Shown here piece by piece: positions 2,635-23,960 of a stretch of DNA of 30,774 nt. The translations under genes were made by a program, and so were the position numbers. Every line of letters starts with the position of its first letter. Position 1 is the first letter of the stretch. The notes under the pieces were generated by a model, which searched no databases, had not been told where the DNA came from, and saw only the letters and a program-made list of their open reading frames with translations. The DNA comes from an uncultured archaeon (GTDB lineage: Archaea > Iainarchaeota > Iainarchaeia > Iainarchaeales > CSSED10-239). The stretch spans positions 1 through 30,774 of the forward strand of contig CAZQEL010000008.1 in NCBI GenBank assembly GCA_964591795.1, given 5' to 3'.

Positions 2635-3957
2635 CTACAGTTTAACTACTTCCCAGCTTCCACCTTTATTAGGACCAATTCTTTTAATTTTACCGTCCTT
2701 TTTAAGTTTTTTAAGATTATATTCTATTCCTCTTCTTGTAAGTCCTATCTTTAAGATTAATTCTTTTGTAGTTATATTTGGGTTATTTTTTATTAATCTT
2801 ATTATTTTCTCCACAGTCTTCTCCATAGTCTTCTCTGAACTAAGTGCTTGTTTTGGTCTATAAAATATAATTGTAAACCAATTCTCAGTAATATCAAATT
2901 TATATTCTAAACCATATTCTTTCATTGAATTTCTTATTCTAGTTATACCTGATCCAATCATTTCTCCTAAGTTTACTCTTTGCATAAGACCAAATAATAA
3001 AGGATTTCTTGAAAGACTTTTCTTTCCAAATTCTTCTTTAGAAATTCCTGAAACTAAGCTTCCTGGGTTTGTAATTTCTACTCTATCATAAAATATATCA
3101 ACTTGTATATGTGCATTTAAAAAATAATTTTTATGTGCAATTGCATTAATTAATGCTTCTCTTATAGATTCTTTTGGTAATTCTAATTTTTCTTTTCTTT
3201 CCTTATCTTTAATTATATAATTTGTATTTAATTTTGAACAAGTATAAATAAAAGCATTATCAAAATTAGAATACAAATCAGTATTAAATTCTTTTTTATC
3301 TAAAATTTCAGTTTTTGTAGTTCCTTGATATAATACACATACAATTGTTGCAGTATAGAAAAATTTAGTGATTTTATTACTAAATAATAAAACACCTGCA
3401 TTTTTTAAATATTTATTATCATATAATGATAGATTTGTTAATATATTGATATAATTAGTAATATTACTTAACCCTGCTTTAGATAAATAGTTTTTAAATT
3501 TAGATTTATTAAAGTCATTTTTTAAATTAAAATTAGTATTTAATTTTTCATCAAAAAAGATAAGTCCTTCTTTTTGAAAAAAGCTTCTTAATGCATCTTT
3601 TTTCATTTTTTGAGATGTTGCACCAATTCTAATATAATATTGTTCAGAATAAGCATATGGTTTTTCTTTTCCTTCAGGAACTGTAATAATAGTAATATTA
3701 TCTATTTCTTTTACATTTAAATTAATTGATGGATCTATTTTTTGCCCAATATCTATTATTTGTGAATGTATTTTGTTTGTTAAAGTGAATTTTTTAATAT
3801 TTTCATTATCATAAACCCCTATTAATATTTTTCCACCTGATGCATTAGCAAAAGCAGATATTTCCTTACCAATATCTGTATATGATTCTTTAAATTCAAG
3901 AGTATATCCTTCTCCTATTTTAATTAAATCTAATAATTCTTGTTTGTTTTCTAACAT
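2635..3957 (-). CDS. Schlafen/AlbA_2-domain DNA-binding ATPase-like protein with C-terminal winged helix
   Basis: 440 aa. AlbA_2 signature EGYTLEFKES...ISAFANASGGKILIGV. HATPase_c_4-like REALINAIAHKNY...DRVEITNPGSL. C-terminal wHTH-like ITTKELILKIGLTRRGIEYNLKKLKKDGKIKRIG. Confidence 0.7.
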   Translation of the reverse strand: MLENKQELLDLIKIGEGYTLEFKESYTDIGKEISAFANASGGKILIGVYDNENIKKFTLTNKIHSQIIDIGQKIDPSINLNVKEIDNITIITVPEGKEKPYAYSEQYYIRIGATSQKMKKDALRSFFQKEGLIFFDEKLNTNFNLKNDFNKSKFKNYLSKAGLSNITNYINILTNLSLYDNKYLKNAGVLLFSNKITKFFYTATIVCVLYQGTTKTEILDKKEFNTDLYSNFDNAFIYTCSKLNTNYIIKDKERKEKLELPKESIREALINAIAHKNYFLNAHIQVDIFYDRVEITNPGSLVSGISKEEFGKKSLSRNPLLFGLMQRVNLGEMIGSGITRIRNSMKEYGLEYKFDITENWFTIIFYRPKQALSSEKTMEKTVEKIIRLIKNNPNITTKELILKIGLTRRGIEYNLKKLKKDGKIKRIGPNKGGSWEVVKL

Positions 3958-4293: not shown

Positions 4294-5184
4294 ATGAATA
4301 ATCTACAAAATATTACAGAAAGTAATAATATAATCACTAATAAACAACTAAATTTAGATATTACATTAGATTCACAATTAAAAAACAAAGAAATACAAGG
4401 TGAACAATGGTTTAGAGATTTTAAAAATTGGTTGTTAATAGTTTTTAATAATCCTTTAAATTTTAAATATCCTAATTCTTAATTAATATTACTTACAGAA
4501 AATAGTGAAAATATATACAAATATATAGATAATTATCAACAAATACATTTTGGGGTTGGTGTTGGGGAAACAGAACTAGAAGTAACCAAATGGCAATTAG
4601 AAAAAAATAACTATTTAGAAGTATGTGCTATTGATATTAATTATGTTTTCTTAGATTTTTTTAAAGAAAATCTGAAATATAAACATATTGAATATAAAGA
4701 CAGTAATATTTTATTTAAAGGTTATAATGATCTCTTTCAAAATATAAATAAATCAAAAATTATTTTCAATAATTCTAAATTAAAACATAAAGTGATTGTA
4801 TGTATAGGTAGTACTATTGGTAATTTTAAAAATCAAGATGAAATATTTTCTCTATTTTCTAATAATTTAAATAAAGGTGATAAATTACTTCTTGATTTTC
4901 AATTAAATACATATTTAGAACAAACTTTTAAAAAATACAAAATTAATAAATTTTATCCACAATTTGGTGTTTTTTGGGAAAAATTTGATGAAAATAAAAT
5001 TAAGTGGATATTAAATAAAGATAATTTTATAACTTTATATTATAATAACATAGATGTTTTTAGATCTAAAAAATATAGTTTAGAAGAAGTAATTAATTAC
5101 TGTAAAAAACATAATTTAAATTATCTAAATTCCTGGAAAGATAAGTATAACAATTCTTGTATTGCAATATTTGAAAAAAAATAA
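4294..5184 (+). pseudogene. SAM-dependent methyltransferase-like frame (EgtD/Methyltransf_33-like) with an in-frame TAA
   Basis: ORFs 4294-4482 and 4792-5184 are in the same frame, and the only stop between them is TAA at 4480-4482. The open stretch 4483-4791 has no ATG/GTG/TTG. It encodes a glycine-rich GVGVGETE motif followed by VCIGSTIGNF, reminiscent of EgtD-type methyltransferases. Confidence 0.45.
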
Positions 5185-5253
5185 AACTCCCAGTCAGGAC
5201 AGAGCCTTGTAGTATTAAGATAAAATAAACTATATAGTTATTAATGTGATATT

Positions 5254-5448
5254 ATGCAAATAGATTGGAACAAAATAATAGAAAACTCAAAAAAGTTAAT
5301 GAAACAACAAACAGAAATAAACCAATCACCATTATGGTTATTAACAGAAATGGCTGTAAAAAAAGGTGAAAAACTCACTGATAAATACAAAGTTGATCAA
5401 AAACTTAATTTTTTTACTTTTCCTAAATGTATAGAAGAAGCTAAATAA
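5254..5448 (+). CDS. Hypothetical 64-aa protein, possibly a gene fragment
   Basis: Short ORF lying among obvious gene fragments. No reliable motif. Confidence 0.2.
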   Translation: MQIDWNKIIENSKKLMKQQTEINQSPLWLLTEMAVKKGEKLTDKYKVDQKLNFFTFPKCIEEAK

Positions 5449-5491
5449 AATATTAAGATAATTAATAATGTTTTGAGGGAAATGTGATAAT

Positions 5492-5785
5492 ATGAATTTA
5501 AAAATAATTAAAAAGGATAATTTAGATACTAAAATTATAATGAGAACTATTTCACTTATAATATTTTTTGATAAAAATAAAAAAATACTATTACAAGATA
5601 GGACTGGAATCTCTAAATTTGGAGAAGAATGGGGTTATTTTGGTGGTAGTGTTGAAAAAAATGAGACTCCTAAACAAACAATAATTAGAGAAACTAAAGA
5701 AGAATTAGATTTTGATTTAATAAACTTTAATTTTAAATATATTGGAAAGCATGATATTGTATTTTGTAATAAACAATTTTTTTAA
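5492..5785 (+). pseudogene. Truncated NUDIX hydrolase
   Basis: Nudix box GGSVEKNETPKQTIIRETKEELDF is present, but the ORF ends at 97 aa, shortly after the box. The intact paralogue at 24555-24977 is 140 aa. Confidence 0.5.
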
Positions 5786-6160
5786 AATATAGCAATAGAA
5801 AACCAAAAAACAATAGAAATTGCAGGAGATTCTGCAAATGGTGTGATCTATTCAGGACCAGAATTTAATTTACAAACAAATAATACTAAAACATTAAAAT
5901 TTATTACCAAATATAAAAAAAAAAATAATGAAGAACCTAGTAACTGGTCAGCAAATTCTTATGATGCTGTTATGATGGTTATTAATTGTATAGATAATTA
6001 TGGATACAATTCAGAAAATATTAAAAAATGTTTATATAATATAAAAGATTATCCTGGTATTGGAGGTAAAACAACATTTGATGAATATGGTGAAGTAATT
6101 AAACCCACAATTATTAAAACTATAAAAGAAGGAGAATTTGTAAAATTTGAAGAAAATTAA
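5786..6160 (+). pseudogene. C-terminal fragment of a type I periplasmic solute-binding protein (LivK-like)
   Basis: Same frame as the NUDIX fragment and separated from it by one stop. ..NWSANSYDAVMMVINCIDNYG...YPGIGGKTTFDEYGEVIKPTIIKTIKEGEFV resembles only the last ~120 residues of ~400-aa binding proteins. Confidence 0.45.
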
Positions 6161-6282: not shown

Positions 6283-7056
6283 CTATTTTTTCCAATCTCT
6301 ATTATACATTTCTTTAATCCATTTTTTATAAATTTTATCATTATTTGAATAATAATCATTTTCAAAATTAGGATCAAACTTATAAATATCTATTTCTTCA
6401 AATTTATTTTTTTGATTTAATATTTTATCAATTGAACCATTTAAAACATCTTTAGGAACCAACCAATAAGCCTTATCAGCATAAGGTCTATAATTTCTTG
6501 TAAGTTTTGTATTAACTGTACTTACATTTAAAACAAATCCTTTAATCCATGTAGAACCATTTGAAAGATTAGATATATAAGATCTAATAATATTTTTTGA
6601 TTCTCTAAAAGAAATAAAAAAAGGTATTTCATATCTATCAGAAATTGCACCTAACATAAGTAACGATAAATTAATATTTTTACCAATATTTCTTTGTTTT
6701 TTAATTAAATCAATGATTATTTCTAAAGGATATTTAAAAGAGTTAACACAAGTATTATAAACTAAAGAATTAATTGTCGTAATTCCAGTTAGTTTGGGAT
6801 AACTTTTATTTTCAAACACATCACTTCCAATAAAATGTAAAACAGATATATTCGAATATTTAGAAATATCAATATTACTTATAACCTCTTTTGTTAAATC
6901 TCTATTTGTAAGATCACAAATTAATGAAGTTATGTTTTTATTTTCTAAAACCCCTCTTCTTGAAATTGCAATAACATGATCCTCTTTTGAAAAATAATTT
7001 AAATACTCTAAACCAATTTCACTTGTTGCACCTAAAACAAATACTAATCTTTTCAT
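6283..7056 (-). CDS. Short-chain dehydrogenase/reductase-like NAD(P)-binding protein
   Basis: 257 aa. N-terminal Rossmann motif VFVLGATSEIG. GGTGG ribosome-binding site upstream of the ATG. Confidence 0.55.
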   Translation of the reverse strand: MKRLVFVLGATSEIGLEYLNYFSKEDHVIAISRRGVLENKNITSLICDLTNRDLTKEVISNIDISKYSNISVLHFIGSDVFENKSYPKLTGITTINSLVYNTCVNSFKYPLEIIIDLIKKQRNIGKNINLSLLMLGAISDRYEIPFFISFRESKNIIRSYISNLSNGSTWIKGFVLNVSTVNTKLTRNYRPYADKAYWLVPKDVLNGSIDKILNQKNKFEEIDIYKFDPNFENDYYSNNDKIYKKWIKEMYNRDWKK

Positions 7057-7068
7057 AATACCACCTTT

Positions 7069-7088
7069 TTAAGTTATAAATAACTTAA
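7069..7088. promoter_or_regulatory. Perfect 9-2-9 palindrome TTAAGTTAT-AA-ATAACTTAA in the SDR/lrp divergent intergenic region
   Basis: Read directly from the sequence. Lies 13 nt upstream of the SDR start codon. Shares the half-site ATAACTT with the palindrome at 7133-7152. Confidence 0.35.
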
Positions 7089-7132
7089 GTTTTTAGTTAA
7101 TATAAACTATTAGTTAGTATTTTTTACAAAAG

Positions 7133-7152
7133 ATAACTTTTTATAGAGTTAT
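7133..7152. promoter_or_regulatory. Inverted repeat ATAACT-N8-AGTTAT around a TATA-like TTTTATAG just upstream of the lrp-like gene
   Basis: Read directly from the sequence. Lies 10 nt upstream of the 7162 start. Has the same half-site as 7069-7088. Confidence 0.3.
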
Positions 7153-7161
7153 TATTACTAT

Positions 7162-8112
7162 ATGTGTATGGATAGAGTAAATAACCAAATATTACTAGAA
7201 TTAATGAAAAATTCAAGAATTACTAATAAACAACTATCAAAAAAAATAAAAGTATCACGAGAAGTTATTGCATATAGAATAAATAAATTAATTAATGAAA
7301 AAATAATTCTTAATTTCACTACTGAAATTAATTATAAAAAGCTAGGATTTATTGCTGGCTCTATTTATTTAAACATTAAAGAAGATAAACAAGATGAATT
7401 TATCGAATTTTTATTTAATTCAAATTATATATCCTGGGCAGTTGAACTTTCTGGAATATGGAATTTTGGATTTTCAATACTAGGAAAAACTGTTGAAGAA
7501 ATAGATGCAAGATTCAATGAAATGTACTTAAGATTTAAAGATGAAATTTTAAATCATAGATTTACAATACACAAACAAACAAAATATTTTTATGAAAAAT
7601 ATTTTAATGAAAGAATTGATTTAAAAATTAAAAAACATAAAAAAGAAGAAATTATTAAAATAGATAATATAGATAAACTAATTTTAAAAGAACTAGTTAA
7701 AAATTCAAGAATAGAACTTACAAAATTATCTTTAATTACAAAGATAAGCCCTCAAGCAGTAAGTAAAAGAATTAAAAGACTTGAAGATAATAATTATATT
7801 TCTAAATATTATATTTTTATAGACATTTCAAAACTAAATATCTACCAATATGAAATTTTTATAACAAACAACAACAAAACAATTAATGAAAGATTATTTA
7901 ACCATTTAGAATTTAGATTAGATATATCTTATATAGCAGAATACATTGGAGACCCTTATCTTGAATTTGGTTTAATTGTAAAAAGCCCTTATGATGTTAG
8001 AAATAAGTTGCAAGAAATTATAAGTTTATTTAAAAATATAACAATTATTCAGATAGACTTATTTCAAAAAGAATATATAGCAATAAGTCCACCTGCATGT
8101 GTTTTTGAATAA
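7162..8112 (+). CDS. Tandem (duplicated) Lrp/AsnC-family transcriptional regulator
   Basis: 316 aa with two HTH_AsnC-like segments (ILLELMKNSRITNKQLSKKIKVSREVIAYRINKLINEKII and ILKELVKNSRIELTKLSLITKISPQAVSKRIKRLEDNNYI). Each is followed by a RAM-like region. Confidence 0.75.
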   Translation: MCMDRVNNQILLELMKNSRITNKQLSKKIKVSREVIAYRINKLINEKIILNFTTEINYKKLGFIAGSIYLNIKEDKQDEFIEFLFNSNYISWAVELSGIWNFGFSILGKTVEEIDARFNEMYLRFKDEILNHRFTIHKQTKYFYEKYFNERIDLKIKKHKKEEIIKIDNIDKLILKELVKNSRIELTKLSLITKISPQAVSKRIKRLEDNNYISKYYIFIDISKLNIYQYEIFITNNNKTINERLFNHLEFRLDISYIAEYIGDPYLEFGLIVKSPYDVRNKLQEIISLFKNITIIQIDLFQKEYIAISPPACVFE

Positions 8113-13673: not shown

Positions 13674-14300
13674 ATGATAAAATTAATAGCATTTGACCTT
13701 TGGGGAACACTAGCAATAAAAGGAAATCCTTTCATTCATTTTTCAAACATAGTTAAAGAAGAGTTTGAACTTAAAATATCTAAAGATGAAATAATTAAGA
13801 TATATGAAGAGTCTGTTGAAATAAAATACTGGGAAACAGAAATAGATGCATATACTGAATTTGCAAGAAGACTTAAAATATCACCAACAAGGGAAAATTT
13901 ATTAAAAATAATCGCAGCAAGAGAAAAAATTGAATCAGATGTAATTGTTTTTGATTTTGCAATACCACTTTTGAAAAAACTTAGAAAAAACGGATACAAA
14001 ACAGCAATTGTTTCAAACTCATCTATGTTTACATATAATGAACTTAAAAGAAAAACAGATTTACTTGATCATTTTGATTATCAATTCTTTTCATTTCAAG
14101 TAGGTTACCTAAAACCTAATCCACAAATTTATTTAGAACTTCAAAGAAAAGCACTTGTTTATAACAACGAGATGCTAATGATTGGTGATGATTTTGAAAA
14201 TGATTTTAAAGCACCAAAAATTCTTGGAATAAACGCTATAATGTTTAAAAATTATGATTCGCTTCTTCAAGAGTTTAAAAAATACGATATTAAATTATAA
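13674..14300 (+). CDS. HAD-superfamily hydrolase
   Basis: 208 aa. Motif I IAFDLWGTL, motif II VSNS, motif IV GDDFENDF. Confidence 0.75.
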   Translation: MIKLIAFDLWGTLAIKGNPFIHFSNIVKEEFELKISKDEIIKIYEESVEIKYWETEIDAYTEFARRLKISPTRENLLKIIAAREKIESDVIVFDFAIPLLKKLRKNGYKTAIVSNSSMFTYNELKRKTDLLDHFDYQFFSFQVGYLKPNPQIYLELQRKALVYNNEMLMIGDDFENDFKAPKILGINAIMFKNYDSLLQEFKKYDIKL

Positions 14301-14308
14301 AAGGATAT

Positions 14309-15124
14309 TTATTTATTTTTTATATTTTCAATAATTTCCTTATAATAAAATTCAAACTTATTTATATCTTGAAATTTAATTTCATACATATCTTTTGAAA
14401 ATACATCTTTTAATTCTAATAATTTATTTTTAAAACTAACCATACTAAACTTAGAAGGATAATTAGCACCTTTAAAATTTAATTTTTTATTAATAATATC
14501 AGTAACATCTTTAGTTAAATACAAACCTTTCTTATTTATTAAAAACCAAAGATCATAAACATCTCTACCTTTTCTCCTTGTGTATATGGTTCTTATTTTT
14601 TCAAAAAATATTTCTTCTATATTCATACATCTTATTATTTTTATAGGTAAATTATAGGCAGGAAAATCAAGAGAGAAAGATATTGTAGGTAATAAAACAT
14701 CTTCTCTATAGCTAATATCAACATCTACAAAACATAAACTTTCTTTGGTAGTATACAATGGCCCTTCTGCAGATATTTTTAATGAAAAACCATATTCATT
14801 TAAATGAATTATTTTACCTTTAGATTTAACACCAGCTAATATCCAAAGCATATTTGTAATCCTTCCATTTATATGATTAGAAAATGATTTTAAATCTTTA
14901 AAACCATATGGAGAAATAGATAAATCTATTGTAAAATCTAAATCTGTAGAAAATCTATCTAATCCATGAAAAAACCATAAATAAGTTCCACCTTTAAAAA
15001 CTAAAGGATATTCTGAAAGAATATTTAAAATTAAAGTTTGAAGATAATGTTTTTCTTGCTGATTAGGCTTTATACCTCTTATACTAGCTATATCAATTAA
15101 TTCATTTTTACTTAACATTTTCAA
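14309..15124 (-). CDS. AbiEii/AbiGii-family nucleotidyltransferase toxin (second copy)
   Basis: 271 aa. VFKGGTYLWFFHGLDRFSTDLDFT signature. 17-nt overlap with the upstream partner. Confidence 0.8.
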   Translation of the reverse strand: MKMLSKNELIDIASIRGIKPNQQEKHYLQTLILNILSEYPLVFKGGTYLWFFHGLDRFSTDLDFTIDLSISPYGFKDLKSFSNHINGRITNMLWILAGVKSKGKIIHLNEYGFSLKISAEGPLYTTKESLCFVDVDISYREDVLLPTISFSLDFPAYNLPIKIIRCMNIEEIFFEKIRTIYTRRKGRDVYDLWFLINKKGLYLTKDVTDIINKKLNFKGANYPSKFSMVSFKNKLLELKDVFSKDMYEIKFQDINKFEFYYKEIIENIKNK

Positions 15125-15671
15125 TCACATTCCTTATTCTTTTTGGATATAATTTACTATATTTTTTCAATAGTCTAAAATTAATTTTAGATTTATAATC
15201 TTCAAATATAGATTTATTATAAATACCATAATAAATGCCATCAAGAATCGCTTTTTCAGGCTCTGCAATATAAGCATAACTTTGATCTAAGTTATATTTT
15301 TTAAAACCAAAAAATAATTTAGGTGTTATTTTATGATATTTTAATTGCATATCTTTGTAATATCTACTATTTATAGTTGTTACGCAAGTAGTAGTTGTTG
15401 GAACTTGATTAATAATTTTATGAAAAAACAAAGCAGAAGATAAAGATATATATGATGGTTCAATAAATTGAGTACTTATTACATTATCATCTGATGAAAA
15501 TATAACTCTACCATGCTTTCTTTTAGCCAATCCATTATTAACTAGTCTTGAAATATAAACATTACTAACTGCTACTGATTTACCTATAAGATTAGCTAAT
15601 TGTCTTGTATTAAATACAGCTTTCTTAGATTCAATAGCTTTATCTTTAATTTTATATATATTATTCATCAC
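15108..15671 (-). CDS. Putative AbiEi-like antitoxin/regulator (second copy)
   Basis: 187 aa. N-terminal wHTH-like FNTRQLANLIGKSVAVSNVYISRLVNNGLAKR. Overlaps the AbiEii-like gene. Confidence 0.55.
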   Translation of the reverse strand: MMNNIYKIKDKAIESKKAVFNTRQLANLIGKSVAVSNVYISRLVNNGLAKRKHGRVIFSSDDNVISTQFIEPSYISLSSALFFHKIINQVPTTTTCVTTINSRYYKDMQLKYHKITPKLFFGFKKYNLDQSYAYIAEPEKAILDGIYYGIYNKSIFEDYKSKINFRLLKKYSKLYPKRIRNVIENVK

Positions 15672-15874: not shown

Positions 15875-16210
15875 TTATTTAAAAATTTTAACAATCCCAT
15901 TTTTTAAATCCAATTCAAGCCTATCTCCTGACTTAACTTTCTTTATGACGTTCTTAACACCAACAATACAAGGGATCCCTAATTCACGAGATACTATTGC
16001 TGCATGAGATAATAATCCCCCTCTTTCGGTTATAATACATAGAAATTTTGTCATAATTGATTCTAAATCTATAAAAGTATGAGTAATTACAAGGATATTG
16101 TTTTTTTCTACAACTATATTTTTATAATTAGTCAAATCTAAAACTTTGGCTACACCAATTATTTTATTTATTTTATTTTTTGATGCAACTATCCCTTTCA
16201 ACATATTCAA
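15875..16210 (-). CDS. Stand-alone PEP-utilising-enzyme mobile (phosphohistidine swivel) domain protein
   Basis: 111 aa. GGLLSHAAIVSRELGIPCIVGV is the conserved phosphohistidine motif of the PEP-utilizers domain. Confidence 0.75.
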   Translation of the reverse strand: MNMLKGIVASKNKINKIIGVAKVLDLTNYKNIVVEKNNILVITHTFIDLESIMTKFLCIITERGGLLSHAAIVSRELGIPCIVGVKNVIKKVKSGDRLELDLKNGIVKIFK

Positions 16211-16856
16211 TCAGCCCACCTATAAATCCTTTTTGTAATTTAAATACATCTTTTTCTAAAAAACGGTTTAAAGTTTTATTATCTATAACTCCCATTCTTA
16301 GAAGAGGTCTGTTTTTTTCTAACTTGAAAAATAAGTTTTTTAAATATTTATCAGATTCGTTTAATTTACAATCCAAAAATAAAAAATTTTTAGAAGATAA
16401 ATATTGGCCAATAATTTCACCAATACAAGAATACATAAATTGTTCTGCTAACCAAAAACTTAATAGTTGATTACATAATTTAGAATATTCTTTTTTCTTT
16501 AAAAAGAAAGTAATATTTGATTTTAATATATCAAATAAATAAAATTCCCCATCAAATAGAAAATCTTGCCACAATCCATGAAATAAAGTATCTACATCTT
16601 TTACAGCCATATGATTGAATGCATTTTTAAGTATCTCATTATTCCCTTCAAAATGGTTAATTAAATACTTTTTAAAATAATTAAAATCATAATTTAACTC
16701 TTTTAAAAAATCATATTTATTAATAATATTTAATGACATCATTTGACATTCAGATAGTTTATAATCTGAATTTTTCTGTAATTCTTCACAACCTATATAT
16801 GAAAAATTGGATGAATCATAGATAATTCCTCCAAAAAAAGTAGGATGATAATTCAT
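16173..16856 (-). CDS. Hypothetical helical protein overlapping the swivel-domain gene
   Basis: 227-aa ORF. 38-nt out-of-frame overlap with 15875-16210. No motif recognised. Confidence 0.4.
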   Translation of the reverse strand: MNYHPTFFGGIIYDSSNFSYIGCEELQKNSDYKLSECQMMSLNIINKYDFLKELNYDFNYFKKYLINHFEGNNEILKNAFNHMAVKDVDTLFHGLWQDFLFDGEFYLFDILKSNITFFLKKKEYSKLCNQLLSFWLAEQFMYSCIGEIIGQYLSSKNFLFLDCKLNESDKYLKNLFFKLEKNRPLLRMGVIDNKTLNRFLEKDVFKLQKGFIGGLIEYVERDSCIKK

Positions 16857-16945: not shown

Positions 16946-17173
16946 TAAAATCACTTCCTATAATTTATATATATATTTTTAATATTAACTAATAAATAAT
17001 ATAAGAATGTAACGATTTAAAAATGTTAACTATAGTAGATAACAGTTAATAGTATTACACAACTATTATGTTTTAACACAATATTTATATAATCGTTTAA
17101 TTAAAACATCAAATATTATTAAAAAATAAATTGAAGATAATATTTAAATAATATATAATAAAATTGAAAAAAC

Positions 17174-17224
17174 TTAACGCCGAAAAAAGCTAAAAACACT
17201 ATTTTTTAAATATTTCGGCGTTAA
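17174..17224. repeat. 51-nt stem-loop element, left copy (12-bp stem TTAACGCCGAAA/TTTCGGCGTTAA, 27-nt loop)
   Basis: Read directly from the sequence. Ends 8 nt before the Fic ATG. The loop carries a TATA-like TTTTTTAAATA centred about 26 nt upstream of the ATG. Confidence 0.85.
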
Positions 17225-17232
17225 ATGTATTT

Positions 17233-18210
17233 ATGTATCTTACAATAAAACAAATTAATTCTAAAAAATATTACTATCTTGAAGAGAAGATAGATAATAA
17301 AACAATAAATACATTTATAGGTATAGATAAAATTAACAATATTAATAAATTTAAAGAGATATTTAAAAAACATAGATTAAATATAATATTAAAACAAACA
17401 AATAAGATTAAAAAAGAAAAAGATATTAAATATTTATCTACCTCTCAAATAATAGAGATTGAAAAACTTAAATATAATTTAAATATATTTAAAACTTATT
17501 TTAAAGAAACATATCAACAATTTAATGAAGATGAATATATTAGATATATACAAGGAAGTTCTTCTGTTGAAGGAAATTCAATTAATCTTGAAGAAACAAC
17601 CCTAATTATTAAAGAAAATTTATCAATACATGGAAAAACAATAAATGAAGTAAAAGAAATTCAAAATTTACTTGAAAGTAAAAAAATTATTGATAAACTA
17701 CCTGAATTAAATGAAAAATTAATTAAAAAAATACATTCTAAAATAATGTCTTCATTTATAACTAAAAAACCAGGTGAATATAGAGATATACCCATATTTG
17801 TAACTGGTTCTGAAGTTAAAAGAGTAAATTATAAAGAAATATCTCTAAAATTAAAAGAATTATTAAATTGGTATATTAAAAATAAAACTAAACTACATCC
17901 AATAGAACTAACTTCTATATTTCATATTTGGTTTGAAAATATACATCCTTTTATAGATGGAAATGGAAGAGTAGGTAGAGAGTTATTAAATTTAATACTA
18001 TTAAAAGAAAATTACCCACGTATAATTATTAATTTAAAAAATAGAACTAAGTATATATCTATTTTAGAAAATTCACAAATACAAGGTAACCAAAAATATG
18101 TGAATTTTTCTGAATTTACATATAATCTTTTAATTGAAAGATCAAATATTATTGAAAAAGAAATTGAAGATAATATTGAAATAATATATAATAAAATTAA
18201 AAAGACTTAA
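17233..18210 (+). CDS. Fic-domain protein (class II, with an intramolecular inhibitory motif)
   Basis: 325 aa. Catalytic HPFIDGNGRVGRE fits HPFx[D/E]GNGRxxR. The upstream SSSVEGN fits the [S/T]xxxE[G/N] inhibitory helix motif. Confidence 0.85.
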   Translation: MYLTIKQINSKKYYYLEEKIDNKTINTFIGIDKINNINKFKEIFKKHRLNIILKQTNKIKKEKDIKYLSTSQIIEIEKLKYNLNIFKTYFKETYQQFNEDEYIRYIQGSSSVEGNSINLEETTLIIKENLSIHGKTINEVKEIQNLLESKKIIDKLPELNEKLIKKIHSKIMSSFITKKPGEYRDIPIFVTGSEVKRVNYKEISLKLKELLNWYIKNKTKLHPIELTSIFHIWFENIHPFIDGNGRVGRELLNLILLKENYPRIIINLKNRTKYISILENSQIQGNQKYVNFSEFTYNLLIERSNIIEKEIEDNIEIIYNKIKKT

Positions 18211-18257
18211 CGCCGAAATATTAAAAAAATAGTATTTATATCTTTTTTCGGCGTTAA
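18207..18257. repeat. 51-nt stem-loop element, right copy, inverted relative to 17174-17224
   Basis: Identical 12-bp stem. The 27-nt loop is the reverse complement of the left loop at 23/27 positions. The Fic stop codon (18208-18210) lies inside the stem. A T6 run sits at 18243-18248. Confidence 0.85.
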
Positions 18258-18269
18258 ACTCTTTAAAAA

Positions 18270-18467
18270 CTATTTTTTGTAAAAATCCATTATTGGTACA
18301 ATTGCTAATAATATGAAAATTATTAAATAATAATACCATTCTAAATATAATAAATCTGGCCATAGTTTTACTACCATTAAAGTAAATGCAACAACTGATA
18401 GTTTAACAAAACCCATATCATACCATTTAAGCTTTTTCATTTTTTTGTTTAAAAATTTAAAACACAT
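18270..18467 (-). CDS. Small membrane protein
   Basis: 65-aa ORF with two hydrophobic helices. The true start may be the internal MKKLKWYD methionine. Confidence 0.4.
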   Translation of the reverse strand: MCFKFLNKKMKKLKWYDMGFVKLSVVAFTLMVVKLWPDLLYLEWYYYLIIFILLAIVPIMDFYKK

Positions 18468-19120: not shown

Positions 19121-19687
19121 TTAATAATCATGCCCAGGGCAAAGAATATCATAATCTAATTTTTTTAATTTATCTAGCGATTCATTCATTTTCTCTGGAA
19201 CTGAAGTAAAAAGATCAGTTCTTCCAACATACCCATTATAGAAAAGAGTATCTCCAGAAAACAAAATACTTCGCTTAGTATCATGTATACAAATAGAACC
19301 TTTAGTATGACCAGGTGTGTAAATAATTTTAAAGTAAGTAGGTAGTTTTAGTGTTTCAATATCTTGCAACTTAACATTAAAACTATCAGACAATGGTTTT
19401 AATAAAATAGTTTTAAATTTATCTTTATTTAAAGACAAAATAGCATCTTTTGATGCATAAAAGGTAGCATTCTTAAAAAGAGAATAATTGCCTATGTGAT
19501 CATAATGAAGATGAGTAAAAATAATAGTTTTTATTTTATCTAGAGAAATTATTTTAGAAATATCTTGAATAACCATTCGTTCGTCAGTTGGTGTTCCTGC
19601 ATCAATTAATATGTTTTCTTCTTTTAAAAAAAATATATTTGAGTCTCCTGATATTTTAAAAACACCATTATAAATTTCTTCAAGCAT
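19121..19687 (-). CDS. MBL-fold metallo-hydrolase
   Basis: 188 aa. THLHYDHIGN (HxHxDH), PGHTKGS, GDTLF and CPGHD motifs. Confidence 0.8.
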   Translation of the reverse strand: MLEEIYNGVFKISGDSNIFFLKEENILIDAGTPTDERMVIQDISKIISLDKIKTIIFTHLHYDHIGNYSLFKNATFYASKDAILSLNKDKFKTILLKPLSDSFNVKLQDIETLKLPTYFKIIYTPGHTKGSICIHDTKRSILFSGDTLFYNGYVGRTDLFTSVPEKMNESLDKLKKLDYDILCPGHDY

Positions 19688-19717: not shown

Positions 19718-20059
19718 TTATTTTAATGATTTTTTAATAGAATTAATTCCATATTTTAAAGGAACAGTATTCATATTCAAAGGTATTGACTTTAATTCTA
19801 GTTTATCTAAAAAATCTCTATATGATAATCCTGCTATTTCACTTGCTTCACTTATATTTATTTCTGTGTTTTTATATAACTCAACTGCTTTATTGAATCT
19901 ATATTCTAATACTTCTTTTTCAATTATAGATCTAATATATTCTGATTCAGTCAAATTTTTTTCTTTAGCAATAGCATAAATTATACTTGATAAAGAGTCT
20001 TTTAATCTTAATGTTTTAACATTCATTTTTTCTTTTTCAGTATATTTTAGTTTAACCAT
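19718..20059 (-). CDS. RHH-like plus UPF0175-like antitoxin candidate
   Basis: The ATG at 20059 is preceded by AAGGTGA at an 8-nt spacing, so it is preferred over the track's GTG at 20071. The UPF0175-like segment is AVELYKNTEINISEASEIAGLSYRDFLDKL. Confidence 0.55.
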   Translation of the reverse strand: MVKLKYTEKEKMNVKTLRLKDSLSSIIYAIAKEKNLTESEYIRSIIEKEVLEYRFNKAVELYKNTEINISEASEIAGLSYRDFLDKLELKSIPLNMNTVPLKYGINSIKKSLK

Positions 20060-20067
20060 ATTTAATT

Positions 20068-20577
20068 TCACCTTTTTAAATAATTATTTATAGATTTTAA
20101 ATAATCTTGAGAAAGCGATTTTTCTATAATACTAATTTTTACTAAAATTTCTTTTTTAGTTAGTTTTTTATTAAAATATAAAAATAATAAGAATTCAATT
20201 ATATTTCCAACTAATATATTATTTTGTTTACAATAATTATAAGGTCTTCCATTATCAATAAAAGTAATTAAACCTAGTTCTTGTGATAAAGCAATACAGT
20301 ATAGTTCACCAGAATCTTTACTTACTTGACTTTCTAATTCTTTTTTAATAGTAGCTGGGTCTTTCACTACTATAATTCCTTCTTTTTTTAATTTATAATA
20401 TAGTTTAATATCATTTGGGGTAAATAATTTAAACTTTAAAGATTCTGCAAACGTAATTTCTAATTCAACTTTAGAAGGAACATATAAATAATTATAATAT
20501 TCTAAAAAAATATCTAGTAAATCAACTTTAACTAAATGTATCCAAAAGGATGCATCAACAATAGCAATCTTTACCAT
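20068..20577 (-). CDS. PIN-like (DUF3368-type) nuclease toxin candidate
   Basis: 169 aa. N-terminal IAIVDASFWIHL is typical of the first acidic strand of PIN-like proteins. Adjacent to the UPF0175-like gene. Confidence 0.5.
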   Translation of the reverse strand: MVKIAIVDASFWIHLVKVDLLDIFLEYYNYLYVPSKVELEITFAESLKFKLFTPNDIKLYYKLKKEGIIVVKDPATIKKELESQVSKDSGELYCIALSQELGLITFIDNGRPYNYCKQNNILVGNIIEFLLFLYFNKKLTKKEILVKISIIEKSLSQDYLKSINNYLKR

Positions 20578-20608
20578 ATATAAATTATATTACGAAATAT
20601 TTAAAAAT

Positions 20609-20625
20609 GTATTACATTGTAATAC
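20609..20625. promoter_or_regulatory. Palindrome GTATTACA-T-TGTAATAC upstream of the PIN-like operon
   Basis: Perfect 8-1-8 inverted repeat, 32 nt upstream of the 20577 start. Confidence 0.35.
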
Positions 20626-20695
20626 AAAATAATTAAAAAAATTAATATTATTAAAAATAAAATTTAAAGAAATTATAATAAAATTATAACTTCAT

Positions 20696-20874: not shown

Positions 20875-22131
20875 TTATTTAATATTAAAATCTCTCCAAA
20901 TCAGATAATATTTTAAAATATTAATATTTTCCTTTTTTGAATCAAAATCAATTTTTGAATTTTCTTTAACAATTAAATAATTTTTATTTAATTCTAATTT
21001 TTGTACAGCTTTTAATTTAAAATTTTTAATTTCCTTATAAGTAATTTGATTTTTATATTTTACTTCAACACCTATCTTTTTAGAAGTAATTTGGTCATAA
21101 CTAATAAAATCAATCTCATTTACTCCTCTATTATTCCAAAAATATTCTGCATTTAACTGAAAAGCAACATCTGCTTCAATAAATTTACTTTCATTAGGAT
21201 TATTAGTTACAAAAGAAATTAATGTAGTACAATATGGATAAAACTTTTTTGAACTTTTTTCTACCTTTCTTGCATTATTTGAAAAATTATACACTTTTCT
21301 GATTAATCCACTATTTACTAAATAATCTATATATTTTGAAATCTTATTTCTATCTGTTCCAAAATCCTTAGCTAAATCATTATAATTTATTATTTGACCA
21401 GGATCTTTTAAAATAACTTTTAAAATACTTAATAAAATATCAATATCAACATCTAATATATATTTTTCTGAATCTTCAAATATTATTTTTTTAATTATTG
21501 TGGTAACATAATCTTTAGATTCAATTGAAGAGTTTATTGCTAATTGAGGATATTGTCTTTTTAAATAGATTTTATACTGTTCAATAAATGCATCATCATA
21601 TACAGCTTTTAATAAATTTTCATTATTTGAAAAAACTAAATATTCCTTAAAACTTAATTGTGGCACAAAATATTCAAAAATTCTTCCTGCAAGACTTTCT
21701 TTTTTACTAACTCTTAATGTAGACCCACTTACAATCAATTTAATATTTGGATAATTATCATATATTATTTTCACTTTTTCTTGCCAGTTATATATTTTTT
21801 GTATTTCATCAAAAAAGAAATAAAGTTTTCCAGAATCAATAGATTTACCTCTAATAATTTCATATTCTTTTAATAATTTAAAAATATCTTCAGTAAAATC
21901 ATCATATGAAAAATAAAATATATCTTTTACATTTATTTTATTATTAATTAAATAATTAATTAATTGTTTAATTAAAACAGATTTCCCAACTCTTCTAGAA
22001 CCTTCAATAGATAAAATTAACTTATTAGATAATATATTTTTTTCTAGAATATAATAAACATCTCTTTTTATTGGGTAATCAATAAGATTACCTTTCCAAT
22101 GTTTATTTTGAAAATAAATTATTTCTTGCAT
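20875..22131 (-). CDS. AAA ATPase of the AAA_14/DUF4143 type
   Basis: Walker A GSRRVGKSVL and Walker B-like LYFFFDEIQ. A start at 22131 (MQEIIYFQNKHW) is preferred because TTTATAAA lies about 24 nt upstream, consistent with a leaderless transcript. Confidence 0.7.
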   Translation of the reverse strand: MQEIIYFQNKHWKGNLIDYPIKRDVYYILEKNILSNKLILSIEGSRRVGKSVLIKQLINYLINNKINVKDIFYFSYDDFTEDIFKLLKEYEIIRGKSIDSGKLYFFFDEIQKIYNWQEKVKIIYDNYPNIKLIVSGSTLRVSKKESLAGRIFEYFVPQLSFKEYLVFSNNENLLKAVYDDAFIEQYKIYLKRQYPQLAINSSIESKDYVTTIIKKIIFEDSEKYILDVDIDILLSILKVILKDPGQIINYNDLAKDFGTDRNKISKYIDYLVNSGLIRKVYNFSNNARKVEKSSKKFYPYCTTLISFVTNNPNESKFIEADVAFQLNAEYFWNNRGVNEIDFISYDQITSKKIGVEVKYKNQITYKEIKNFKLKAVQKLELNKNYLIVKENSKIDFDSKKENINILKYYLIWRDFNIK

Positions 22132-22265
22132 ATACAAATAAGATACAAAACATTTATAAATAGCAATCATATTTGTAACAAATATGCATAAATAATTAAA
22201 TTTTGTGCCAAATTTGTTGTTTTTTTGGTAAAAAAATAATTCTATAATCCAAATTTATATGTTTA

Positions 22266-22320
22266 TTAATGAGTAAACCAGAAATTATATGTTTTTTTAC
22301 CTTCTTTTTCTTCAATTGAA
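22266..22320. repeat. Gene-resident copy of the 55-bp direct repeat (partner 20696-20750)
   Basis: Starts exactly at the gltX stop codon and covers the last 17 codons. Confidence 0.9.
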
Positions 22321-23960
22321 TCAAGTCTACAAAAACCAAATCTCTCAAACTGAATAATATCTCCAATATTTAATTGTTCAATATTCTTTTCTGCCTTTCC
22401 TTTGAAAAGATCATGTTCAGGAGTAAACACAGTAGCATCTATTAATTGAAAATCATCGTTTGGTAGAAAATGAATTATTTTTTTATTATTATTTGGAGTT
22501 TCTTTAAAGTTAATATATTCTTGAGAATCAAAAACATATTCTGAATCTTTAACCTTAAAATTAATGTTATCCATTAAACGAATAAGATTACCATCCTTAA
22601 AAGACTCAACATCTTCTTTTTCAAGAAAATAACTACCGTTAGACACAAAATTTCTATCTCCTAGTTTAAACATAGGATGTATTGATAATGAATAATGTCT
22701 ATTAATATCATTTACAACTGATATTTTTACAGGTTCTTTAATAAAGAAAAATCTTTTAGCAGTATCATTTAATATTCTTTTATTATATTTAATTATTGTA
22801 TCCCATGTAATTACAGCACCAGATGACTTAGTAATTCCAGATTCAACAACCATTTGCATAATTGCTTCTTTTGTAAACCCACGTCTTTTTAATGCTCTCA
22901 AAGTAGGAAGACTAGGATCATCCCAACCAATAAGTTCACCAGAATTAACTTTTTCGCGAATTTCTCTTCCTGATGACGCCATACCTTCTAAATTAAATCT
23001 TGAAAACTCATATGTAAAAGTATCATAAAGACCTAGTAATTTTCTAATATAATGATGAAGTTCACTTGCCATTTCAAACTCTAATGTTCTTAATCTATGA
23101 GTAGTATTAAGATATCCATCTAAAAATGCATTTTGAAAATCATAGGTAGGATAAACTCTATATTTAGATCCAATCCTTGGATGTTCAGCATCAATCACTC
23201 TAAAGATAGTAGGATCTCTCATTCTTGAATTTTTATGTTTTAAATCAACTTTAAGTCTAAGTGAGGCTTTTCCTTCCTCATAATTTTTCATTTCATTCCA
23301 TTTAATTAAATTTTCTTCTGGAGAATTATCTCTACAAGAACAAGCTTCTTTTTTCATTCTATTTTCACTCATTTGTTCAGGCTTACAAAAACACATATAT
23401 GCCTGTGATTTAAGGATAAGTTTTTCTGCTTCTTCATGCATTTTACCTATATAATCAACAGCATATAAGACTTTGTCTATTTTTACACCTAACCAATCAA
23501 GATCCTCTAACATTATCTTATAAAACTCAGGTTTTACAAGTCTTGGGTTTGTATCTTCAAATCTTAAATAGAATTTACCATTATATTGTTTTGCTAAAAG
23601 ATAATTAAGTAAAATTGCTTTAGAGTGACCAATATGAAAATATTTTTCAGGGCCTGGTGGAAAACAAGTAACAACCTTGTCACCTTCTTTAATATTTAAA
23701 AAAGCAAAAATGTTTCTTTCTTCTTTTTCTTTCTTATCAAAAAAGCTTGGATTTATTTTTTTAACCATTTCTTGTTGTTTTTCTAAAGATAAAGCATTAA
23801 TTTCTTCAATTAAAGGAATAAGTTCTAAAGATAATTCCTTTGTTTTAGTTCTATATTCAGGAAAATCTTTTAAAACACCACCTAAAATAAATTTAAGTTC
23901 TGCTTTTCCTTTATACTTAACTGCATTTTCTAATATTATTTTTTTAAAAGTATCTTGCAT
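22266..23960 (-). CDS. gltX: Glutamyl-tRNA synthetase, archaeal/eukaryal type
   Basis: 564 aa. Class I HIGH motif FHIGHSKA. Long catalytic core plus a C-terminal beta-barrel-type region. The N-terminal ILENAVKYKGKA..LGGVLK segment resembles a GatB/YqeY-like appended domain. Confidence 0.9.
   Translation of the reverse strand: MQDTFKKIILENAVKYKGKAELKFILGGVLKDFPEYRTKTKELSLELIPLIEEINALSLEKQQEMVKKINPSFFDKKEKEERNIFAFLNIKEGDKVVTCFPPGPEKYFHIGHSKAILLNYLLAKQYNGKFYLRFEDTNPRLVKPEFYKIMLEDLDWLGVKIDKVLYAVDYIGKMHEEAEKLILKSQAYMCFCKPEQMSENRMKKEACSCRDNSPEENLIKWNEMKNYEEGKASLRLKVDLKHKNSRMRDPTIFRVIDAEHPRIGSKYRVYPTYDFQNAFLDGYLNTTHRLRTLEFEMASELHHYIRKLLGLYDTFTYEFSRFNLEGMASSGREIREKVNSGELIGWDDPSLPTLRALKRRGFTKEAIMQMVVESGITKSSGAVITWDTIIKYNKRILNDTAKRFFFIKEPVKISVVNDINRHYSLSIHPMFKLGDRNFVSNGSYFLEKEDVESFKDGNLIRLMDNINFKVKDSEYVFDSQEYINFKETPNNNKKIIHFLPNDDFQLIDATVFTPEHDLFKGKAEKNIEQLNIGDIIQFERFGFCRLDSIEEKEGKKTYNFWFTH

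Follow-up and report, generated by a model that had tools for sequence, protein, structure and literature searches.

Elements of the IS200/IS605 type have hairpins of the same orientation at both of their ends. Integrons and attC-site clusters without an integron-integrase (CALINs) exist in DPANN archaea (PMC9668308), CALINs being called from at least two attC sites (PMC9024848), and small inversions of 4-50 bp, facilitated by hairpins, are established in AT-rich plastid DNA (Kelchner & Wendel 1996, reviewed; PMC12371153). Here we compare with these systems a locus in a 30,774-nt stretch of DNA from an uncultured archaeon of the Iainarchaeales (contig CAZQEL010000008.1; the whole stretch is referred to as the window), in which a gene for a Fic protein is framed by two 51-nt palindromes, an upstream element (L) and a downstream element (R). 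We find that the two palindromes are the right-hand ends of a head-to-tail repeat and that inversion is limited to a 27-nt spacer; the bracket is probably ordinary genome tinkering and not the bracket of a mobile element. In particular we favour, with modest confidence, the view that it is a direct repeat of Fic's own palindromic promoter/boundary module, derived from a local tandem duplication, with the spacer of one copy flipped.

The palindromes and the repeat to which they belong

Both palindromes have the same arms, TTAACGCCGAAA on the 5' side and TTTCGGCGTTAA on the 3' side of a 27-nt spacer, and both 12-bp stems are perfect and uninterrupted on either strand, with no extrahelical bases, according to a scripted check and to folding as single-stranded DNA. 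The folding energies of L and R on either strand are -13.6 to -14.1 kcal/mol (z approximately -4.2 against shuffles; -13.6 kcal/mol and z -4.3 for L). The outer ends read ACTTAAC...GTTAAAT and ACTTAAC...GTTAAAC, and T-runs are present on both strands of the whole palindrome. Between the end of L and the Fic ATG (17233) there are 8 nt, and the Fic stop codon TAA (18208-18210) lies inside the 5' arm of R. Further, neither a search with the arm sequence nor a covariance model of the palindrome, built from 17 copies, found another occurrence in the window (30.8 kb, 22% GC). At gathering thresholds the sole Rfam match was a tRNA-Asn at the window end, and a permissive E-value search of the region gave only chance-level matches; none in either search fell on the hairpins. 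The stems, the loop relationship taken up below, the spacing relative to Fic and the uniqueness of the stem within the window had all been described in a first-pass annotation made from the sequence alone, and are reproduced here. The hairpins are supported as real, non-random and tied to the Fic gene.

The same annotation had taken the palindromes for terminal inverted repeats (TIRs) of a 1084-bp unit. We argue against this, since the flanks to the left of both copies are directly repeated. A repeat search gave a direct repeat of 146 nt (17080-17225 against 18113-18258, spacing 1033 nt), blastn paired 17087-17225 with the hairpin and the Fic 3' end preceding it (85% identity across 139 nt, E 2.6e-40), and tblastn placed Fic residues 289-325 on 17064-17174 (62% identity, E 1.5e-8). 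In the approximately 95-110 nt before L the 3' end of Fic recurs, decayed and in direct orientation, and the repeat is therefore head-to-tail. Aligned, the direct repeat with its Fic pseudogene occupies 17083-17225 and 18114-18258. This remnant has two in-frame stops and reads ...YNRLIKTSNIIKK*IEDNI*IIYNKIEKT (asterisks, stops) where the live gene has ...YNLLIERSNIIEKEIEDNIEIIYNKIKKT; tblastn and blastn detected no Fic pseudogene sequence further upstream than 17064. The inverted orientation seen in the window is due to the flipped loop of an otherwise direct repeat, and the locus carries the warning that apparently ‘inverted’ hairpin pairs may be direct repeats of this kind.

The R spacer agrees with the reverse complement of the L spacer at 23/27 positions, against 14/27 in a same-direction comparison. 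Since the arms are perfect inverted repeats, inverting the spacer amounts to inverting the whole element. It is R that is inverted, relative both to L and to all relatives, the orientation of L being that of all relatives: the covariance model scores L at 80.9 bits on the + strand (54.3 on the - strand) and R at 69.6 bits on the - strand (50.1 on the + strand), and every copy scores higher on the Fic strand except the window R (1/20 copies). Once flipped, R has the window's own L as its closest relative (92%), and therefore the inversion is lineage-specific and was followed by four substitutions. The window sequence is also found in two other assemblies (L001, from ENA, and L002, from JGI), and the orientation of R is identical in all three independent assemblies, which argues against an assembly artefact and against a fast switch. 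Considering the 27-nt spacer, the identical arms, the 23/27 match after reverse complementing and the collinear left flank, all of them marks of a small inversion, we suggest by analogy with plastid DNA that the spacer may have been flipped by a hairpin-mediated event. The flipped loop also resembles the flank at 18264-18278, but the likeness comes from the last codons and the stop of the small convergent open reading frame (ORF) that follows Fic.

Copies in relatives and the history of the locus

The DNA around eight Fic homologues was compared (loci labelled L003-L150, with W for the window; the truncated Fic matches P0010 and P0016, which look like contig-edge fragments, were left out). The closest homologues (65-88% identity) come from uncultivated DPANN archaea such as ‘Candidatus (I)ainarchaeum sp.’ and ‘Candidatus Diapherotrites archaeon’. 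In all eight relative loci the upstream copy ends 8-9 nt before the ATG, and where there is a downstream copy it follows the Fic stop codon and stands in direct orientation (4/4 lineages; Table 1). In L144, whose Fic homologue is 51% identical, the covariance model gives a weak match (23 bits) at the upstream position. The model found no additional copy in the approximately 94 kb of related loci searched, and the contigs scanned hold 1-3 copies each, all at or near Fic. A scan of genome contigs with a loose 20-base pattern returned at least 120 matches; among those listed the sole relevant one was L047, described below, and the others were unrelated hairpins of GC-rich bacteria. In JGI metagenome contigs a 22-base pattern found the L004 contig only, plus chance matches in GC-rich DNA, and two pattern scans of viral contigs gave no match. 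The scans of contig collections thus yield, among the matches listed, Fic loci and one solo site, and no dispersed copies.

W, L003, L150, L012, L148 and L047 share a neighbourhood, with a 12x-aa ORF and a HAD hydrolase gene on the left and a small membrane ORF, a Lactamase_B gene and a GluRS-like gene on the right. The genes found between these anchors differ from locus to locus (AbiE, gene fragments, UPF0175/DUF3368, AAA_14/DUF4143, Metallophos and others). At the syntenic position of L047, with HAD on one side and the small ORF, Lactamase_B and GluRS on the other, a single palindrome stands without Fic, as expected if two flanking copies had recombined; alternatively, the site may never have been occupied. 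Its solo palindrome is followed by a 65-aa ORF (translation start 3604; 69 aa, 3407-3616, in the ORF list, which counts from a GTG further upstream) homologous to the small-protein gene to the right of Fic in the window, and this flank is conserved in L003, L004 and L150 as well. The small protein of the window (MCFKFLNKKMKK...), which probably spans the membrane twice, has approximately 55% identity to its L047 homologue, is represented by truncated remnants in L003 and L004, and gave no family match.

Within a genome the upstream and downstream palindromes are 92-98% identical (84% in L148), which equals or exceeds the identity between genomes, and the paired copies of one genome share lineage-specific spacer changes. 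L150 has another palindrome, its third, where a 1.25-kb direct repeat (92% identity) ends on the right, 5.39 kb upstream, the repeat comprising the HAD 3' end, a Metallophos gene and the palindrome; here the copies flanking Fic are 96% alike, against 86-90% to the third copy. In W and L150 the 30 nt before the palindrome match the downstream copy of their own genome only (scores of 24 in W and 16 in L150; null 95th percentile 12-13). A repeat reaching into the Fic 3' end was rejected as a general feature, being significant in these two loci only. Taken together these identity patterns point to repeated homologous exchange, that is, tandem duplication, unequal crossover and gene conversion; the remnant, the identity matrix and the W and L150 flanks are those of a tandem-duplication remnant with concerted evolution. 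The two copies of the L150 repeat (1166-2454 and 6558-7907) bracket genes for a 746-aa repeat-rich protein and for a 498-aa protein. Within the 498-aa ORF, L006 3397-3488 (equal to L150 approximately 5308-5399) consists of perfect tandem 24-nt units (ATAATAATCAATCAACTCAACCAG).

In the alignment of 17 copies there is no variation in columns T44-A55 and hardly any in TTTTTTAAATA; the 3' arm and the spacer's T-run/TATA portion vary little or not at all. Among Fic homologues no part of the element is better conserved than the TATA-like box with the 3' arm, and Fic third codon positions have an identity of only 63-88% between lineages. In the single-copy loci (L007, L140, L141, L149) the TATA box and 3' arm are again near-invariant, the 5' arm having decayed in L140, L141 and L149. 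Most window genes have the Shine-Dalgarno sequence GGTG at -11 to -8, and Fic has none. Because the TATA-like box stands approximately 25 nt before an ATG without a Shine-Dalgarno sequence, the Fic mRNA is probably leaderless and the ‘regulatory bracket’ entertained in the first-pass annotation is plausible as regards a promoter role, the box being present in the L loop where it had been placed. The position and conservation of the box fit an archaeal promoter for a leaderless mRNA, and we suggest that the spacer and 3' arm may constitute the Fic core promoter. The arrangement of TATA box, TTTCGGCGTTAA, 8-9 nt and ATG is then a candidate conserved core promoter for an uncultivated DPANN clade. 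An exact second copy of the 14-mer TTTTAAATATTTCG, made up of the TATA box and the start of the 3' arm, lies at 20593-20606, in the stretch (window 20578-20640, - strand) that precedes the DUF3368/UPF0175 pair, and a palindrome of perfect 8-1-8 form, GTATTACAATGTAATAC, stands before it there. Allowing one mismatch, there are three matches to it in the window against 0.28 expected, and it may be a promoter type shared by toxin-antitoxin-like genes.

The palindrome stands, moreover, at what looks like a transcription-unit boundary, in a position that could be terminator- or insulator-like. A generic hairpin terminator was considered and rejected: the consensus terminator scan, which does not pick up long-loop palindromes, gave 1 site against 2.3 expected, as in a genome without general use of such hairpins.

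For the window, a tandem duplication followed by loss of most of the first copy is the most parsimonious history. We propose that [Fic + palindrome] would have been duplicated in tandem, giving Fic-palindrome-Fic-palindrome; that the first gene copy would then have been mostly lost, leaving here 37 decayed codons before the upstream palindrome; that gene conversion or unequal crossover may keep the two palindromes around the surviving Fic alike, the same exchanges being able to delete Fic and leave a solo palindrome; and that the downstream 27-bp spacer may have been inverted by recombination or template switching between the perfect 12-bp arms.

Several observations weigh against this reading. 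With regard to the boundary module, archaeal termination is normally independent of hairpins, and the consensus scan saw no other hairpin terminators in the window. A role of the hairpin as RNA is doubtful, because transcripts could terminate at a T6 run in the spacer, short of the 3' arm. Selection for stem pairing is not proven and covariation is thin: pairing is kept in 90.7% of alignment cells, a G.G mismatch at the stem centre is common to six copies (seen in L150, L148 downstream, L141 and L149) and is not conserved, and the one compensatory pair (L007) is equalled in 49/500 shuffles and so is not significant. With regard to the duplication, the 30-nt flank match is not significant in L003, L012 and L148, and in these loci the palindrome-only repeat appears equally compatible with a site-specific origin. 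Further, the right edge of every repeat, including that of the independent L150 event, lies at the 3' foot of the palindrome (GTTAAA), and so precise an edge is not predicted by a purely homology-driven model. If the proposed history holds, the locus is a tidy worked example and not a discovery: in a tiny archaeal genome, very rich in AT, a promoter/boundary module was duplicated together with a gene of toxin type, its copies being homogenised by gene conversion and one spacer flipped by its own arms.

Table 1. Features of the window and copies of the palindrome at related Fic loci
Feature or locus	Positions	Strand	Fic identity	Details
Upstream element L	17174-17224	+		5' arm 17174-17185, spacer 17186-17212, 3' arm 17213-17224
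TATA-like box TTTTTAAATA in L spacer	17203-17212	+		Centred approximately 25 nt before the Fic ATG
Downstream element R	18207-18257	-		Arms 18207-18218 and 18246-18257, spacer 18219-18245
Fic gene	17233-18210	+		325 aa; Pfam PF02661, PDB sequence matches, predicted fold
Decayed copy of last approximately 37 Fic codons	17064-17173	+		From tblastn, blastn, repeat search and local alignment
Functional Fic 3' end, counterpart of remnant 17080-17173	18113-18206	+		From the same alignments
Gene for small two-transmembrane protein	18270-18467	-		65 aa, convergent with Fic; marks the orthologous right flank
AbiEii/AbiEi	14309-15671	-		In the HAD-GluRS island
Lactamase_B/Apyc1-like gene	19121-19687	-		In the HAD-GluRS island
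UPF0175+DUF3368	19718-20577	-		In the HAD-GluRS island
AAA_14/DUF4143	20875-22170	-		In the HAD-GluRS island
L003/L004			88%	Upstream and downstream copies, direct orientation
L006 = L150			80%	Upstream and downstream copies, direct orientation
L148			72%	Upstream and downstream copies, direct orientation
L012/L013			71%	Upstream and downstream copies, direct orientation
L007-L011			75%	Upstream copy only; stem with compensatory A>T / T>A change
L140			73%	Upstream copy only; 5' arm decayed
L141-L143			70%	Upstream copy only; 5' arm decayed
L149			65%	Upstream copy only; 5' arm decayed

Other readings of the palindromes

The arms might instead be a protein operator, symmetric transcription-factor sites that clamp the TATA box of a potentially toxic AMP-transferase gene, the potential to form a hairpin being incidental; we think this unlikely, although it is compatible with the duplication history proposed above. 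The 3' arm, which separates the TATA box from the ATG, shows no variation and is kept more strongly than the pairing, as suits an operator, yet the 5' arm has decayed in three single-copy loci without loss of the gene. The double change in L007 preserves symmetry, whereas the 39-bp centre-to-centre spacing is unusual for a dimer. Regulators of the helix-turn-helix (HTH) type are frequent neighbours (TrmB directly upstream in L007, AsnC-type genes in L140 and the window), but no conserved linked regulator was found, Fic itself has no DNA-binding domain in its predicted structure, and the downstream copies would be left unexplained. Autoregulation by Fic through a DNA-binding domain of its own was rejected, no winged HTH (wHTH) domain appearing in the predicted structure or the Foldseek matches.

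It is distinctly unlikely, in our view, that the palindrome is an attC-like or att-like site, folded as a single strand for recombination, with Fic inserted at its 3' foot (G|TTAAA). L047 would then be an empty site and the locus a two- or three-site CALIN with its recombinase encoded elsewhere. Put otherwise, DPANN (Iainarchaeota-like) archaea would have a minimal cassette system with an integrase acting in trans, to which we give little credence, and a [Fic + palindrome] minicircle of approximately 1 kb would be excised and re-inserted at the GTTAAA foot of resident palindromes, which seems to us as doubtful. Such a system would explain the solo site, the precise right junctions and the presence of promoter plus Fic in several unrelated neighbourhoods. 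The attC-like ends noticed in the first-pass annotation do fit RYYYAAC...GTTRRRY (R''/R'), a motif that is short and AT-rich and hence weak evidence at 22% GC, and the solo site of L047 at a syntenic position is in their favour; the stem, however, is perfect over 12 bp and has neither extrahelical bases nor a central unpaired stretch to separate R from L boxes. Every repeat does end sharply at GTTAAA, the independent L150 copy included, but the W and L150 repeats take in adjacent coding sequence, the signature of homologous exchange, and another strain-level breakpoint (L003 against L004) lies approximately 120 nt away from the palindrome. Moreover, crossover at a fixed point does not produce concerted evolution of the spacer, nothing but Fic or, in L150, a chromosomal segment duplicated anew serves as ‘cassette’ content, and where there is a single copy the palindrome is retained upstream of the gene, the reverse of the ORF-attC order. 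No integrase or transposase Pfam domain, and in particular no tyrosine recombinase, was found in any ORF of the 30.8-kb window or in approximately 90 kb of related loci. Were the palindrome a recombination site after all, it would bear on the movement of single genes in DPANN genomes.

An invertible promoter switch, in which the 27-bp TATA-bearing spacer flips between the 12-bp arms and redirects transcription, is very improbable. The window's downstream copy would in that case drive antisense RNA into the Fic 3' end. A promoter-like TATA box does lie between perfect inverted repeats, and both orientations exist among the copies (by the covariance-model scores given above, R against all others), but one copy in 20 is flipped, with four substitutions since, and the copy directly before Fic never is. 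A segment of 27 bp is very short for recombinase-mediated inversion. An invertible bracket, another proposal of the first-pass annotation, finds no support in the single orientation shared by the window, L001 and L002, nor in gene content, no invertase gene being found nearby (window ORFs by Pfam; locus sequence examined).

Least probable of all is a non-autonomous transposon with Fic as passenger, whether of TIR or miniature inverted-repeat (MITE) type or a palindrome-associated (PATE)/rolling-circle element with hairpin ends, mobilised in trans: Fic and the upstream palindrome do occur in at least 4-5 different gene neighbourhoods among the 65-75% homologues, similarity between those loci begins exactly at the 5' arm, and the same-oriented hairpins at both ends resemble IS200/IS605 architecture, but the ends are direct repeats in L003/L004, L150, L012/L013 and L148 and so are not TIRs, there are 1-3 copies per contig, with none elsewhere in the window and nothing other than Fic loci from the viral and JGI metagenome scans, the unit begins and ends where the gene does functionally (promoter to stop), which selection alone would bring about, and the window ORFs and the locus sequence examined yielded no transposase. 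A TIR transposon was rejected on the same grounds of direct ends, lack of dispersal and no transposase found, together with the lack of a separate target duplication, the TTAA tips once read as such being part of the palindromic stem, with none outside it. A 27-nt loop on a perfect stem, as here, is unlike IS200/IS605 hairpins, and no TnpA was found in the sequence examined.

Fic, its neighbours and the known systems

By its motifs and predicted fold the framed ORF is a genuine Fic, a class II FICD-like AMP-transferase. It matches Pfam PF02661 (E 3.5e-18) and, among PDB sequences, FICD (E 6e-22); the AlphaFold model (mean confidence, pLDDT, 93.6) gives Foldseek matches to FICD and BT_2513. The class is defined by HxFx(D/E)GNGRxxR, an N-terminal (S/T)xxxE(G/N) and the Fic fold, and the ORF has all three, the catalytic motif HPFIDGNGRVGR and the inhibitory motif SSSVEG both being invariant in the homologue alignment. 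Residues 2-30 (17236-17322) are confidently predicted to form a three-stranded beta-meander ahead of the FICD-like helical core. This meander contains a KKYYYLEEK motif, in which Y13 is invariant, and is kept in all close homologues.

The interval from the HAD gene (13674-14300) to the GluRS-like gene (22266-23960) can be marked as an island of variable content, with Fic and other genes of toxin-antitoxin or defence type (Table 1). Nothing but the palindrome, the small ORF and Lactamase_B occupies this interval in L047, and in L004 the AbiE pair is on the opposite side of Fic. At 15875-16856 (- strand) a 111-aa ORF consisting of the PEP-utilizers mobile domain only overlaps a 227-aa ORF without Pfam match; situated a little upstream of the Fic remnant, the two look like pieces of a disrupted gene for a PEP-utilising enzyme. 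At the left end of the window, further defence-type genes comprise a second AbiEii/AbiEi-like pair (49-1592, - strand) and a protein with Schlafen AlbA_2, HATPase_c_4 and wHTH domains (2635-3957, - strand). Short ORFs at 4792-6160 (+ strand) match only the C-terminal ends of Methyltransf_33, NUDIX and Peripla_BP_6 and are probably gene fragments. Full-length members of these three families adjoin Fic in L144 and L007.

Among described systems, the Fic protein shares with human FICD/HYPE and Bacteroides BT_2513 the catalytic motif, the N-terminal SxxxEG and the predicted fold, and differs from them in its extra N-terminal meander and its archaeal host. Promoter invertons of the fimS and Bacteroides types have, like the palindromes, inverted repeats around a promoter-like segment and both orientations among copies; here, in contrast, the segment is about ten times shorter, no invertase was found, there is no heterogeneity across three assemblies, and the flip affects the copy that stands in front of no gene. 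The repetitive extragenic palindromes and their mosaics (REP/BIME) and the elements associated with IS200/IS605 are likewise GC-rich intergenic palindromes and endpoints of duplications, whereas the present palindrome occurs in 1-3 copies at or near Fic, has a 27-nt loop, and was found with neither RAYT nor TnpA. With integron attC sites and CALINs the locus has in common a palindrome just after an ORF stop, RYYYAAC...GTTRRRY-like ends, 2-3 sites within a few kb, toxin-type cargo and a place among DPANN hosts (PMC9668308; PMC9024848); it departs from them in its perfect and short stem, in that no integrase and no array of diverse cassettes was found, in repeats that reach coding DNA, and in a site upstream of the gene in single-copy loci.

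The spacer flip itself resembles the small inversions of non-coding plastid DNA, being confined to the spacer between perfect arms, within the 4-50 bp range at 27 bp, and set in AT-rich DNA, although here the DNA is that of an archaeal chromosome and a promoter-like box lies in the inverted spacer. Finally, remnants of tandem or segmental duplication with unequal crossover and gene conversion share with the Fic locus the head-to-tail orientation, a truncated pseudogene in one copy, likeness that is greater within than between genomes, a solo palindrome, putatively a deletion product, at a syntenic site and, in a relative (L150), a second, larger duplication ending at the same element. Unlike the usual remnants, the right boundary falls with unusual precision at the palindrome's foot, and the repeat of 51-146 nt stays homogenised though the Fic proteins differ by approximately 30%.

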